A DNA stretch of 64,000 bases, taken from Aquificota bacterium (lineage in GTDB: Bacteria > Thermosulfidibacterota > Thermosulfidibacteria > Thermosulfidibacterales > B14-G1). The position numbers and the translations under genes are program-made. The DNA lies in contig WFSL01000036.1 of the NCBI GenBank assembly GCA_015486015.1, positions 30,934-94,933 on the forward strand, read 5' to 3'. Shown here one piece after another: positions 22,898 to 33,560 of the stretch. How positions within the stretch are numbered: position 1 is the stretch's first letter; each line of letters begins with the position of its first letter. The notes beneath the pieces were generated by a model. It had not been told where the DNA came from and did not search any database. It saw nothing but the letters and a program-made list of their open reading frames with translations.

Positions 22898-23133
22898 CCC
22901 TCCACACTTTTTCAATTAAAAACGCTTTTCCGCCCAAACTCCTCAGCGACTTCAACACATCCTTGAAGACCAATTTGGCAAACTCCCTGATTGCAACACG
23001 CTTACCCCAGTTCTTTACAGACATGCTCAACCCATTTAAAAAGTAATTTCCCCAAAACAAGCTTTAGCAAGTCACCAAAAGATCGCCATAGAGGGTTTAA
23101 ATCTTCCTTTATAATCACTATGTGTTCGGCATT

Positions 23134-23150
23134 TAGAACAAATTGTTCTA
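23134..23150. promoter_or_regulatory. Perfect 7-3-7 palindrome TAGAACAAATTGTTCTA, a candidate operator
   Basis: An exact inverted repeat in the AT-rich 530-bp gap, about 275 bp upstream of the first gene of the 23.4-33.6 kb cluster. Confidence 0.25.
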
Positions 23151-23425
23151 TTTTTTAGGACATCTTTCAAAAATGATCATCGATAAAGGGGAGAAAACAT
23201 CCACATATATATTCTAATCTATACAATATTCTGAAATCAAGCAAATGGTCATTAAGCGATATAACCCTTTCCCGATTTTATAAGTTACTAAAATTAAATA
23301 AATTAAATAGATGGCAAGAAAATGAACTTTATTAGGGGGAAAGCCAAAAGGGATAGTATGGGGATATGTGACGAAGAGCACAAGGAACGGGAGATGAAGT
23401 TTAAAACGAGTAGGAGGATGAAAAT

Positions 23426-24442
23426 ATGGGTGAGCTCAGATTTAATGAAAATTTATGCCTAAACTGCACCACATTCGACTGTCTCAAAAAGTGTAAATTT
23501 GTTAAACTGAATGGAGCTAAAGGAAATTTGGAAATGCTCAAAATAGCTCGAGGAGAAGATTCCACAGTGCTAAGAACTTGCATTACATGTTATGCCTGTG
23601 AGGAGTATTGTGAAAAAGGAAATCACCCATTCTACTTGATATCAGAAAAGAGAGAAGAAAAGGGAATAGATATAGTGCCCAGGCCTATACTAAAGCAGTG
23701 GATTAATCTTGGAGAACCAGTTGGAAGATACAAGGTAGGAGAACTTAGAGAAAAAACTTTATCTTTTGGATTTGTACCAGAGTTCCTACAATGGGTTAAA
23801 GGTAAACTATTCGAAGATGTTATGCCATCCTATGTTTTTGGACAAGAATTCTTCTGCAATGTAGCTTATCTGCACTTTGGAAGGACCTCAGTGATAAAGC
23901 AGAGATTGCCCATCGTAATGGATAATTTCAGCAAGCTGGGCATAAAAGAGGTAATTTGCCTCCATGATGAGTGTTATGGAGCTTTCACTTCTTTAGCGCC
24001 AGCTTTCGGTATAGAAGTCCCTTTTAAACCTATTCATTATTATGAGTATATTCTAAAGAGATTAGAGCAACTAAAGGATAAAATAAGGCCCTTAAATATC
24101 AAGGTGGCTTATCAAAGGCCATGTTCATCCAGACTGTCTCCACCTATGCACTACCTTGCCAGAGAAATCTTCACTTCTATAGGGGTGGAACTTGTTGATA
24201 GAGTATACCAGGATGAAAATGCCCTATGTTGTGGTGAAGTAGTGAGGCTTCAGGGACTATACGATCTCGCAGAAGAGTTGCAAAGAGAAAACATAGAAGA
24301 TATTGTAAAAAGCGGAGCAGAGTACTGTGTTTTTAACTGCCCATACTGTTACGCTGCTCTTGGCCACAAGCTAATCAAGAAAGGGGTCAAGCCTATTCAC
24401 ATTATTGAACTCTGCAGAATGGCCTTAGGAGAGGAGGTGTAA
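23426..24442 (+). CDS. (Fe-S)-binding protein with ferredoxin-like N-terminus and CCG (Cys-rich) domain (GlcF/HdrD-like)
   Basis: 338 aa. It has CLNCTTFDCLKKC and CITCYACEEYC cluster motifs, and a C-terminal ALCCGEVV...NCPYC CCG motif. Confidence 0.75.
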   Translation: MGELRFNENLCLNCTTFDCLKKCKFVKLNGAKGNLEMLKIARGEDSTVLRTCITCYACEEYCEKGNHPFYLISEKREEKGIDIVPRPILKQWINLGEPVGRYKVGELREKTLSFGFVPEFLQWVKGKLFEDVMPSYVFGQEFFCNVAYLHFGRTSVIKQRLPIVMDNFSKLGIKEVICLHDECYGAFTSLAPAFGIEVPFKPIHYYEYILKRLEQLKDKIRPLNIKVAYQRPCSSRLSPPMHYLAREIFTSIGVELVDRVYQDENALCCGEVVRLQGLYDLAEELQRENIEDIVKSGAEYCVFNCPYCYAALGHKLIKKGVKPIHIIELCRMALGEEV

Positions 24443-24444
24443 TA

Positions 24445-30904: not shown

Positions 30905-30929
30905 CACAAAATCCTTACGGGAGGACAGT

Positions 30930-32225
30930 ATGCTGGACGCCAAGGCATTGGAAATCATGGCGAAGAGAGAAGCCCTGAAGGGCATAAGGGTGCTGGACAT
31001 CACCAGAATCATCTACGGACCCTGGGCAGCTAACCTTCTGGCCGTCATGGGGGCGGAGGTGATCCATGTGGAGATTCCCGGTTCGGGGGATCTCCTCATC
31101 AGGGCCGTGTCTCCTGGGGGAGTTTTCCCCAGAGGATTGTCTCCGGGAATGATGTGCTGCAACTCCAACAAGTACTACCTGGCTGTGGATATGCATAAAG
31201 AAGAGGGACTGAAAATCATCAAGGAGCTGGCGGCCCGGTGCGATGTCATTATGGAGAACTTCAAGCCCGGGACTTTTGACCGCTGGGGAATTGGCTACCG
31301 TCAGCTCAAAGAGATCAACCCGGACATCATCTACGTAAGCATGCAGGGTTTTGGGAATTGGGGTCCCTACTGGACCCGTCCCAGTTATGACGCCTATGCC
31401 CAGGGTATAACGGGCCTGGCAGAGATCACAGGCTTTCCCGATGGCCTGGCTGTTAAGGCCCAGACATGGATTGGGGATTTCCTCTCTGGGACCCTGGCGG
31501 CCTTCTATACCCTGGCAGCCCTGCGTCACAGGAACAGGATGGGGGAAGGTCAGTTCATCGATCTCTCCCAGGCCGAGGTCCTTCTAAGGGCCATGGACTG
31601 GACCTGGCTTTACCAGTCCATCACCGGTGAAGGAAGGGAGAGGACGGGCAACTGGGATCCCGCCGTGGTACCATCCACGATCGCCAAAACCAAAGACGGC
31701 TTCGTGGCCATTGGTGCCTTTCCCAAGAAGGAGTTTCAAGGTCTGTGCCAGGCCATGGGAAGGGCGGACCTCTACGAGGAGTTCAGGGATGTGGAGAAGA
31801 GGCAGAAAGAGTATGAAAAGGTCTATAGGCCTATCGATGAGTGGGCGGCAGGCAAGACCACCCAGGAGATCCTAGCCCTCTCCAGGGAGTACAGCTTTGC
31901 TGCAGCCCCTGTGAACAACTCGGAGACCATCCACAAGAACCCCCATTTCAATGCCAGGAAGATGGTGTGGAAATTCCTGGATCCCCTCTGGGGAGACCTG
32001 GCTTATCCCAGACCCTGGCACCTCTCGGAAACCCCGGGTCGGGTGCGCTGGTCTATGAGGCCCGTGGGGTTCGACAATGAGCATGTGATGATCAGGATTC
32101 TAGGATACACCCAAGGGGAGGTGGAGGAGCTCTACGAGAAGGGGGTTCTGGGCAAGTGGGATGAGAATTTCCCCGCCACGGCTCCTCCCAAGGACTGGGA
32201 CGGCAAGAAGGGACTTTTCTACTGA
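30930..32225 (+). CDS. Family III CoA-transferase (CaiB/BaiF/Frc family), paralogue 1
   Basis: Contains GIRVLDITRIIYGPWAANLLAVMGAEVIHVE, and WIGDFLSGTLAAFYTLAAL with an Asp at the expected catalytic position. GGGAGG precedes ATG 30930. Confidence 0.85.
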   Translation: MLDAKALEIMAKREALKGIRVLDITRIIYGPWAANLLAVMGAEVIHVEIPGSGDLLIRAVSPGGVFPRGLSPGMMCCNSNKYYLAVDMHKEEGLKIIKELAARCDVIMENFKPGTFDRWGIGYRQLKEINPDIIYVSMQGFGNWGPYWTRPSYDAYAQGITGLAEITGFPDGLAVKAQTWIGDFLSGTLAAFYTLAALRHRNRMGEGQFIDLSQAEVLLRAMDWTWLYQSITGEGRERTGNWDPAVVPSTIAKTKDGFVAIGAFPKKEFQGLCQAMGRADLYEEFRDVEKRQKEYEKVYRPIDEWAAGKTTQEILALSREYSFAAAPVNNSETIHKNPHFNARKMVWKFLDPLWGDLAYPRPWHLSETPGRVRWSMRPVGFDNEHVMIRILGYTQGEVEELYEKGVLGKWDENFPATAPPKDWDGKKGLFY

Positions 32226-32243
32226 TGTAGAGAGGTGGAGACC

Positions 32244-33560
32244 ATGGAAGTCTATGAATGGACCGATTGGGCCCGATTGAATACGGAACCCGGCAGGGCC
32301 AAGGACAAGCCTCAGGCCCTGGACGGTGTGACAGTGTTGGATCTCAGTTATGGTAGCTTCGCCGGCCTCTTTGCCTCTTCTCTCATGGCGGAGATGGGGG
32401 CCAGGGTCATCAGGGTGGAGCCCCCCGAGGGGGACATTGCCCGGAATATGACTCCCCAGGCCATGAAGGTGAAAGATACAGGCCTGGCCTACATAGTGGA
32501 GGGGCGCAACAAGCATCACATCACTCTGGATATCAACATCCCTAAAGGAAGGGAGATCTTCTTAAAGATGCTGCCCAAGGTGCAGGTCCTTATAGAGACC
32601 TTCCCTCCCAGATACATGGAAAATTTGGGCCTGGGCTGGGAGGTCCTCAGAGAGAGGAATCCCTCTCTCATCTACTGTGCCATCAACAGCTGGGGCCAGG
32701 AGGGGCCTGCCGTGGACGAGGGCATGGGTCAGGGGACCCTGGACTACGACGTAGTGGCCCAGGCTCTGGGGGGCTTTGCCTGGACGGTAGGGCTCCCCGA
32801 AGACTACACCGAGTTCCCCGAGTATACCCGGGTGCCCACCCGCATGGGCAACTGGATGGGCTGGTACATGGGAGGAGCCATGGCCGCCTTCTCCATCATG
32901 TCGGCCCTTATTTTTGCCGAGGCCACAGGGGAAGGCCAGTTCATTGACATCAGCCCAGCCGAGGCCCTCGCCACCGTAAATAACTATGCCTTCCATGTGT
33001 ATTACCTGACGGGCCTGGTCATAGGCAGGGTGGCCAATTTTGAACCGGCGGCCTATGCCTACCACTATGTCCAGGCAAAGGATGGCATGGTCTTTCTGGC
33101 GGGCTACGCCGATCCCAACTGGAAGGCCCTTTGTTCCATTATCAACCGGTCTGATCTGGTGGAGAAGTATCCCACAGTGAAGGACAGGACCAACCCCAAG
33201 AACTTTATTCCCATGACCCAAGAGATAGAGAAGTTCACCAAGAGGTACACCAGAGAGGAGATCCTCAAGATATGGCTGGACTATAGGGGGCCGGGGGTGA
33301 CGGTGGCCGGGGAGGTTTTGAAACCCTTGGAGTCCATGAAGCTGGAGCACTGGCATGAGAGAAAGGCTCTCATGAAGATCAAGGATAAGGATTATGGAGA
33401 GCTTCTGGTCCAAGGCATCACCTCCAAGATGAGCGGTACTCCTCCCGTGCTCAAGTGGGTATGCCGACCCGTGGGTGCCGACAACAGCCTCATTTACAGG
33501 GAACTCCTGGGTTACGACGAAGAGGAGCTGAACAGGCTAAAAGCCCAGGGGGTGGTTTGA
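32244..33560 (+). CDS. Family III CoA-transferase, paralogue 2 (catalytic Asp apparently absent)
   Basis: Contains GVTVLDLSYGSFAGLFASSLMAEMGARVIRVE. The equivalent active-site stretch reads RMGNWMGWYMGGAMAAFSIMSAL and has no Asp. Confidence 0.8.
   Translation: MEVYEWTDWARLNTEPGRAKDKPQALDGVTVLDLSYGSFAGLFASSLMAEMGARVIRVEPPEGDIARNMTPQAMKVKDTGLAYIVEGRNKHHITLDINIPKGREIFLKMLPKVQVLIETFPPRYMENLGLGWEVLRERNPSLIYCAINSWGQEGPAVDEGMGQGTLDYDVVAQALGGFAWTVGLPEDYTEFPEYTRVPTRMGNWMGWYMGGAMAAFSIMSALIFAEATGEGQFIDISPAEALATVNNYAFHVYYLTGLVIGRVANFEPAAYAYHYVQAKDGMVFLAGYADPNWKALCSIINRSDLVEKYPTVKDRTNPKNFIPMTQEIEKFTKRYTREEILKIWLDYRGPGVTVAGEVLKPLESMKLEHWHERKALMKIKDKDYGELLVQGITSKMSGTPPVLKWVCRPVGADNSLIYRELLGYDEEELNRLKAQGVV

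Follow-up and report, generated by a model that had tools for sequence, protein, structure and literature searches.

In a 64,000-nt stretch of the genome of an uncultured vent bacterium, recorded as Aquificota bacterium (GenBank assembly GCA_015486015.1, contig WFSL01000036.1, positions 30,934 to 94,933), referred to below as the window, eight closely spaced genes on the forward strand form one apparent operon between positions 23426 and 33560 (Table 1). We conclude that this cluster probably arose when two unrelated, self-contained cassettes were joined by horizontal transfer, each of them keeping the synonymous-site composition of its earlier home. Cassette A comprises genes 1 to 3, which encode a FAD-linked oxidase and two iron-sulfur proteins, and cassette B comprises genes 4 to 8, which encode an acyl-CoA module. 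An earlier note on this DNA, made from the sequence alone, had already proposed that two blocks of separate history meet here, and the comparison with other genomes agrees with it: each block stands alone elsewhere, and their closest relatives differ in GC content (GC).

The compositional step between the two cassettes is real, falls between gene 3 and gene 4, and is well beyond chance. GC is 0.426 in the block of genes 1 to 3 (23426-27014), 0.558 in the block of genes 4 to 8 (27108-33560) and 0.360 in the intergenic region in front of gene 1 (22898-23425), against 0.516 in the remainder of the window, which serves as background. When GC is measured in sliding segments of 1 kb, it dips to 0.36-0.44 at 23.0-26.5 kb and climbs to 0.53-0.585 at 27-33.5 kb, the other parts of the window lying at about 0.50-0.55. 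Moreover, the 3.6-kb extremes of the whole window adjoin each other, the lowest starting at 22901 and the highest at 29901. For GC at third codon positions (GC3), the background is 0.579 ± 0.038 (mean and standard deviation of 45 window genes), and all z-scores given here are relative to these values. Judged by the atypical composition that is used to recognize genomic islands, the cluster deviates in both directions, with z-scores of -5.8 to -3.1 at its low end and +3.0 to +4.4 at its high end, and it also deviates in tetranucleotides, the distance from background being greater for each block than for every background chunk of the same size. The maximum-likelihood break in third-position GC was placed at 27110 (gain of 108 log units; support 26717-27182), which is the start of the acyl-CoA dehydrogenase gene (gene 4). 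A weaker second break in GC3 was detected at about 28991, within gene 5, where the value changes from 0.60 to 0.715.

The earlier note had based the contrast on hand counts of five 60-nt lines, all of which are exact on recount (18/60, 40/60, 38/60, 29/60 and 29/60). The amplitude that it claimed, 30% against 65% around a background of 50%, was overstated because the hand counts took extreme lines (the standard deviation of 60-nt lines is about 0.07); the measured values are about 43% and 56% around 52%. Its location of the switch, between the end of gene 3 at 27014 and the acyl-CoA dehydrogenase gene, is borne out by the GC3 change-point, and the intergenic region was correctly described as AT-rich. 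Of the analyses that it had proposed as a check, sliding GC and GC3 show the step at about 27.0 kb, and tetranucleotide use sets both blocks apart from the background. The further statement that neither block matches the host holds for genes 1 to 3 and 6 to 8, which deviate in GC3, but fails for genes 4 and 5, which are host-like.

Cassette A is very widespread on Desulfobacterota-type contigs, at about 66-72% protein identity. It occurs alone on the long contigs L003-L006, in varied neighbourhoods and never beside the acyl-CoA module. In other genomes, of 41%, 48% and 55% GC, its GC3 equals that of its neighbours; the cassette therefore has no built-in AT bias and normally comes into equilibrium with the genome that hosts it. 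For genes 2 and 3, the nearest relative was found in L133, with 79.7% nucleotide identity over window positions 25297-27004. The homology stops at 27004, 10 nt short of the stop codon of gene 3, the final gene of the low-GC cassette, and the gene 3 proteins are 86% identical. The L133 contig has 44% GC; genes 2 and 3 of the cassette have a GC3 of 0.40-0.46 there, and an adjacent ligase gene has 0.39. Genes 2 and 3 thus share the same GC3 in the window and in L133 even though their synonymous divergence (dS) is at least 1.2, which implies that they cannot long have been resident in a host with a GC3 of 0.58. The start of gene 3 was set at ATG 25857 and not at TTG 25815, because its homologues have 384 aa; one of these homologues carries the source label FadF. 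In function, cassette A probably provides a soluble dehydrogenase of the 2-hydroxy-acid type, whose electrons would leave via HdrD-like subunits.

The five genes of cassette B likewise stand alone in L008-L011, where the homology covers exactly 27108-33560 at 77% nucleotide identity and the flanks are unrelated. In L012 (132-3897) and L013 (1-5029), gene 4 is directly followed by genes 7 and 8, so genes 5 and 6 represent an insertion or a deletion inside the module. For genes 4, 7 and 8, these two loci are the nearest relatives, at 82-86% nucleotide identity to the window, on contigs of 61% and 58% GC, respectively, and with a GC3 of 0.79-0.85. The gene 4 protein is 93-94% identical to the copies in L008 and L012. 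The N-terminal domain of gene 5 (28260-29300) has the lowest nucleotide identity to L008 in the module (57-66%, other parts 74-89%). The GC-rich block is itself a mosaic, in which gene 4 and the N-terminal domain of gene 5 are host-like and genes 5 and 6 are an indel relative to the closest relatives. The gene 6 thiolase gene overlaps the stop codon of gene 5, and the two CoA-transferase subunits (genes 7 and 8) share about 30% identity. Among NCBIfam models, only gene 6 gave a match above cutoff (PRK06157, 658 bits; cutoff 403), and the curated equivalog cutoffs were not reached by any other gene of the cluster. In an alignment to chain I of 6ESQ, the N-terminal domain of gene 5 shows Thr and Met opposite the catalytic Glu and Cys; it is thus probably a non-catalytic scaffold. 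Cassette B probably serves to activate an organic acid by CoA transfer, oxidize it and cleave it thiolytically.

Among the loci fetched through a cluster gene (L003-L048, L133-L136), none contains both cassettes, about 20 related loci being covered in all, and the change-point at 27110 coincides with the exact homology limit of both. Relative to L012, dS is 0.70 for gene 7, 0.66 for gene 8 and 1.4 for gene 4. The nearest known relatives of the host enolase share 81-84% protein identity with it, and dS is saturated; other host genes have 75-83% identity to those enolase-clade relatives, in which synteny is kept for only about 5 kb. When clustered at 90% identity, proteins of the host flanks are singletons, and genes 4, 6, 7 and 8 fall into clusters with 8-34 proteins of other assemblies. 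The earlier note had spoken of recent horizontal acquisition. Transfer itself is supported, and we infer both its direction and its relative recency, but "recent" is arguable only against the yardstick of saturated synonymous divergence, neither an empty site nor an integrase or att repeat having been found.

The 3' edge of cassette B is marked by a decayed gene. In L013, a full gene for a 541-aa acyl-CoA ligase directly follows gene 8. At the corresponding place in the window, a remnant keeps residues 2-23 (33613-33679) and 471-539 (33726-33932) of the 541, having lost the start codon and about 1.3 kb by internal deletion, and is thus a pseudogene. Its presence shows that the ligase gene came in with the block, and the remnant marks where the imported module has decayed at its 3' side. 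A hairpin just past it is probably the end of the transcription unit. On the other side, the left limit of the imported DNA lies somewhere within 22898-23425.

Taken together, the probable course of events would be as follows. Cassette A (about 23.4-27.0 kb) would have come from a low-GC lineage (about 41-44% GC), and cassette B (27.1-33.9 kb), at least from the middle of gene 5 on, from a higher-GC lineage (58-61% GC). Gene 4 and the N-terminal domain of gene 5 would be older residents or derive from another source. At the resulting seam at 27.1 kb, amelioration toward the host value of about 52% GC would still be incomplete.

A number of observations weigh against this account. Genes 4 and 5 fall inside the host GC3 range, and the GC3 of gene 3 (0.464) is no lower than that of the housekeeping gene ribF (0.466). 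Karlin codon bias singles out gene 1 alone as a clear outlier, and genes 3 to 8 are within or near the background range. The amino acids of gene 2 (FYMINK/GARP) are not AT-shifted in comparison with 119 homologues. In 13 of 18 loci, the acyl-CoA module is richer in GC than the flanking DNA (by 0.09 GC3 in L008), a comparison in which automatic calling of open reading frames (ORFs) is noisy in high-GC loci and the rows for L013 and L043 are unreliable; part of the GC excess of the GC-rich block may be intrinsic. Inspection of all ORFs at 17.8-34.4 kb yielded no mobility genes (integrase, transposase), those outside the annotated genes being too short or too dissimilar; the segment 17400-36000 contains no att-like direct repeat of either the tmRNA or the tRNA-Met end; and 80 metagenome loci with DUF2400 provided neither an empty site nor synteny, the best being 60% identical. 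Furthermore, the genomes of L012 and L133 could be closer relatives of the host than assumed, and the three assemblies that cover the locus, compared below, may share reads.

Several of these points would also fit vertical inheritance of both blocks, with gene-specific codon preferences (expression, amino-acid content, operon position) producing the step. The GC-richness of the CoA-transferase/dehydrogenase module in most carrier genomes, the low GC3 reached by ribF, the near-background codon bias of genes 3 to 8 and the ordinary amino-acid composition of gene 2 are all in its favour, as is the monotonic increase of GC3 over the eight genes. We nevertheless regard it as unlikely, given that cassette A matches the GC3 of its neighbours in three genomes of 41-55% GC, that genes 1 and 2 sit 4-6 standard deviations under the host mean, and that the change-point is the exact homology limit of both cassettes. 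In addition, enolase and ftsY are highly conserved host genes and their GC3 is not raised, and the cassettes are unlinked at every other locus fetched. Alternatively, everything from the end of the tmRNA gene onward (about 17.9-34 kb) could be a single island, acquired at once and already as a mosaic in its donor. The tmRNA and tRNA-Met genes do open an AT-rich zone, and the stretch 17859-22108 is both AT-rich (GC 0.437) and atypical in tetranucleotides. Yet the codon usage of its genes is normal, its low GC being due to intergenic DNA and to the amino-acid make-up of a TPR membrane protein, so that it does not speak for a single large island. The intervening pilin-like, TPR and DUF2400 genes all show the codon usage of the host; in 17400-36000 the 3' end of the tmRNA is not repeated, and neither an integrase nor any other mobility ORF was found at 17.8-34.4 kb; one donor would leave two opposite deviations unexplained; and the cassettes are adjacent at no fetched locus. 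This possibility seems to us quite improbable.

A chimeric assembly had been raised in the earlier note as something to exclude at the junction; in this metagenome it would have joined reads of the host with those of two other organisms, one of low and one of high GC. Two further assemblies carry the same locus, L001 (a 130-kb ENA scaffold) and L002 (a 19-kb GenBank contig), and their contig ends differ. Both are base-for-base identical to the window across 14445-29811, including the block boundaries, so that three assemblies cross all junctions without a difference. The differences that do exist are all synonymous and confined to gene 6, with 14 variable sites falling in 29812-30010 and the other 5 in 30262-30343; L002 ends inside this gene, and about half of the variant bases of L001 match the L008-type allele. 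These patches suggest that coexisting variants of the thiolase gene have recombined with it or were mixed in the assembly graph. In favour of a chimera are the metagenomic source and the clustering of single-nucleotide polymorphisms in gene 6, where one contig also ends, which shows that coexisting variants of the module tangle the assembly graph. The pattern of differences points to such variants of the conserved thiolase gene rather than to a faulty join at 27.0 kb. A chimera would need three separate false joins without shared repeats, and the close packing of the genes and the truncated state of the ligase remnant have the look of evolved, not of assembled, sequence. We therefore consider an assembly artefact extremely improbable. 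Returning to the joining of two cassettes, its most far-reaching version would be that the seam created a new co-transcribed unit, in which the CCG proteins may act as an electron outlet for the dehydrogenase that is independent of electron-transfer flavoprotein, and that, separately, the acyl-CoA module may still be exchanged by recombination among co-occurring vent populations, as the polymorphism patches in gene 6 might indicate. We think this very improbable.

Table 1. Features of the cluster and its surroundings in the window (GC3 and its z-score are given for the eight cluster genes)
Feature	Start	End	Strand	GC3	z	Description
tmRNA gene	17503	17858	+			Tag peptide AEPSYALAA
tRNA-Met(CAT) gene	18080	18156	-			Rfam match to tRNA
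Upstream region	22898	23425				Non-coding, upstream of gene 1; 36% GC; holds palindrome TAGAACAAATTGTTCTA
Gene 1	23426	24442	+	0.360	-5.8	338 aa; cysteine-rich Fe-S protein with one CCG domain, HdrD/GlpC-like
Gene 2	24445	25830	+	0.422	-4.2	461 aa; FAD-linked oxidase, FAD_binding_4 + FAD-oxidase_C, GlcD-like
Gene 3	25857	27014	+	0.464	-3.1	385 aa; Fe-S protein with 4Fe-4S dicluster and two CCG domains
Junction spacer	27015	27107				93 nt, 39% GC, between the two blocks
Gene 4	27108	28247	+	0.618	+1.0	379 aa; acyl-CoA dehydrogenase; GC3 host-like
Gene 5	28260	29708	+	0.625	+1.2	482 aa; PhlA/HMG-CoA-synthase-like domain fused to DUF35 zinc-ribbon/OB-fold
Gene 6	29708	30904	+	0.692	+3.0	SCP2-type thiolase
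Gene 7	30930	32225	+	0.722	+3.8	Family III CoA-transferase, first subunit
Gene 8	32244	33560	+	0.745	+4.4	Family III CoA-transferase, second subunit
Ligase remnant	33613	33941	+			AMP-forming acyl-CoA ligase remnant, similar to the 541-aa ligase after gene 8 in L013
Hairpin	33954	33982				G+C-rich, GGGTCAGG...CCTGACCC; terminator-like, just past the ligase remnant

The non-coding DNA around the cassettes was also examined. The region upstream of gene 1 is probably the promoter and operator region of the cassette. A perfect 17-nt palindrome at 23135-23151 could be an operator site, and a single weak promoter-like match was found at 23200-23227; match counts for promoters and terminators over the scanned region did not exceed the expectation from shuffled sequence. 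A permissive Rfam search of this AT-rich region returned just a chance-level snoRNA match. The junction spacer contains an inverted repeat (GCTATCC...GGATAGC) and an AGGAGG ribosome-binding site in front of ATG 27108; the scan of its 93 nt for promoters and terminators gave no terminator-like and no sigma-70-like match. When the spacer was aligned with the DNA that precedes the module in L008, L010 and L012, no similarity was found before the start codon. All eight genes may thus share one transcript that starts in the AT-rich DNA in front of gene 1.

The cluster sits in a neighbourhood of housekeeping genes. In its upstream flank, the window carries ftsY, kup, a gene for a glycogen-debranching-type enzyme, the tmRNA and tRNA-Met genes, a pilin-like gene and genes for the TPR membrane protein and DUF2400; the downstream flank carries queF, sppA, ogt, truA, hemA and hemC. 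The AT-rich zone begins with the tmRNA and tRNA-Met genes, 5.5 kb ahead of gene 1, and an Rfam search of the whole window matched only the tmRNA and one tRNA. Besides the cluster, ribF (FAD synthetase/riboflavin kinase; 51544-52503, minus strand) is the sole window gene with a strongly low GC3 (z -3.0; codon bias B 0.418). Two stretches of about 0.9 kb each, 58693-59588 and 60535-61453, lack an ORF of at least 90 aa, the second having about 43% GC; no Rfam match at the gathering threshold was obtained in either. As for the surroundings of the module in other genomes, L008 (4799-7225) has divergent genes for a PAS sensor kinase/response-regulator hybrid and for an enoyl-CoA hydratase upstream of it and an alpha/beta hydrolase gene after it; these flanking genes may be parts of a native regulon that the copy in the window lacks. 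Distant CoA-transferase homologues in Desulfacinum infernum lie in a context of a symporter and methylmalonyl-CoA mutase, which gives no clear clue to the substrate.

The phenomenon as such is well known, and the cluster is an ordinary mosaic built by horizontal transfer, which leaves general understanding unchanged. The enzyme families are familiar as well; the GlcD/HdrD-like dehydrogenase and the Bbs-like/PhlACB-like module are uncharacterized. The value of the locus is that it illustrates, in a clean and checkable way, how uncultured Desulfobacterota-like bacteria come by catabolic clusters put together from cassettes that travel separately. The locus also draws attention to a widespread uncharacterized acyl-CoA module, consisting of a dehydrogenase, a two-subunit CoA-transferase, an optional insert of PhlA-like, DUF35 and thiolase parts, and a ligase. 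In addition, it holds a warning for annotation, namely that tight spacing on the same strand need not mean one ancestral operon.

Horizontally acquired metabolic cassettes with incomplete amelioration are reportedly covered by the amelioration and selfish-operon ideas of Lawrence and Ochman. The present cluster resembles such cassettes in having complete, coherent genes whose third-codon composition is off that of the host, in that each block forms a unit in unrelated contexts, and in the decaying gene at one edge. It differs from them in that mobility genes, att sites and a tRNA-adjacent insertion point were not found here, and in that two cassettes deviating in opposite directions adjoin each other within a single apparent transcription unit, the GC-rich cassette being a mosaic. 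With a classical integrase-mediated island the cluster shares the atypical composition; neither an integrase nor att sites were found here.

With regard to the enzymes, genes 1 to 3 resemble the GlcDEF glycolate oxidase and the D-lactate dehydrogenase with an HdrD/GlpC-like subunit, since their Pfam domains combine a FAD_binding_4/FAD-oxidase_C flavoprotein with CCG Fe-S proteins. Their NCBIfam scores are far below the cutoffs (120.4 against 567.9 for glcD, 50.6 against 333 for GlcF, and 75.7 against 800 for LdhH), and, unlike GlcDEF, the cassette has two CCG proteins and no GlcE. For cassette B, comparison was made with the Bbs/Bns-type beta-oxidation modules of anaerobic hydrocarbon degraders, which have the BbsEF CoA-transferase, the BbsG dehydrogenase and the BbsAB thiolase with DUF35, and with the Thn CoA-transferase/dehydrogenase pair in culture N47 (PMC11659651). 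Unlike the Bbs module, the region 22.9-34.4 kb lacks both an enoyl-CoA hydratase (BbsH) and a short-chain dehydrogenase (BbsCD), an enoyl-CoA hydratase gene being present beside the module in L008 only; the score for the BbsB model, 167, falls short of its cutoff of 750, and DUF35 is fused to the PhlA-like domain. Shared with Bbs are the adjacent, divergent family III CoA-transferase genes, the acyl-CoA dehydrogenase and the SCP2-type thiolase with a DUF35 partner. Gene 5 also differs from HMG-CoA synthase, with a PRK04262 score of 198.5 against a cutoff of 244 and the catalytic Glu and Cys absent. Unlike PhlACB (PDB 5M3K, 9SKH) and the archaeal thiolase/HMG-CoA synthase/DUF35 complex (6ESQ), the cluster has the PhlA-like and DUF35 parts in one polypeptide, and these genes sit inside a CoA-transferase/dehydrogenase module. 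The best matches of gene 5 among solved structures are PhlA (9SKH, 5M3K), the synthase of 6ESQ and its DUF35 protein, all of them weak (phmmer E-values of 1e-25 to 1e-28, about 100 bits). Genes 5 and 6 supply the same three parts as PhlACB and the 6ESQ complex, namely an HMGCS-like subunit, a DUF35 subunit and an SCP2-type thiolase, and gene 5 resembles PhlA in having other residues where the synthase carries its catalytic Glu and Cys.

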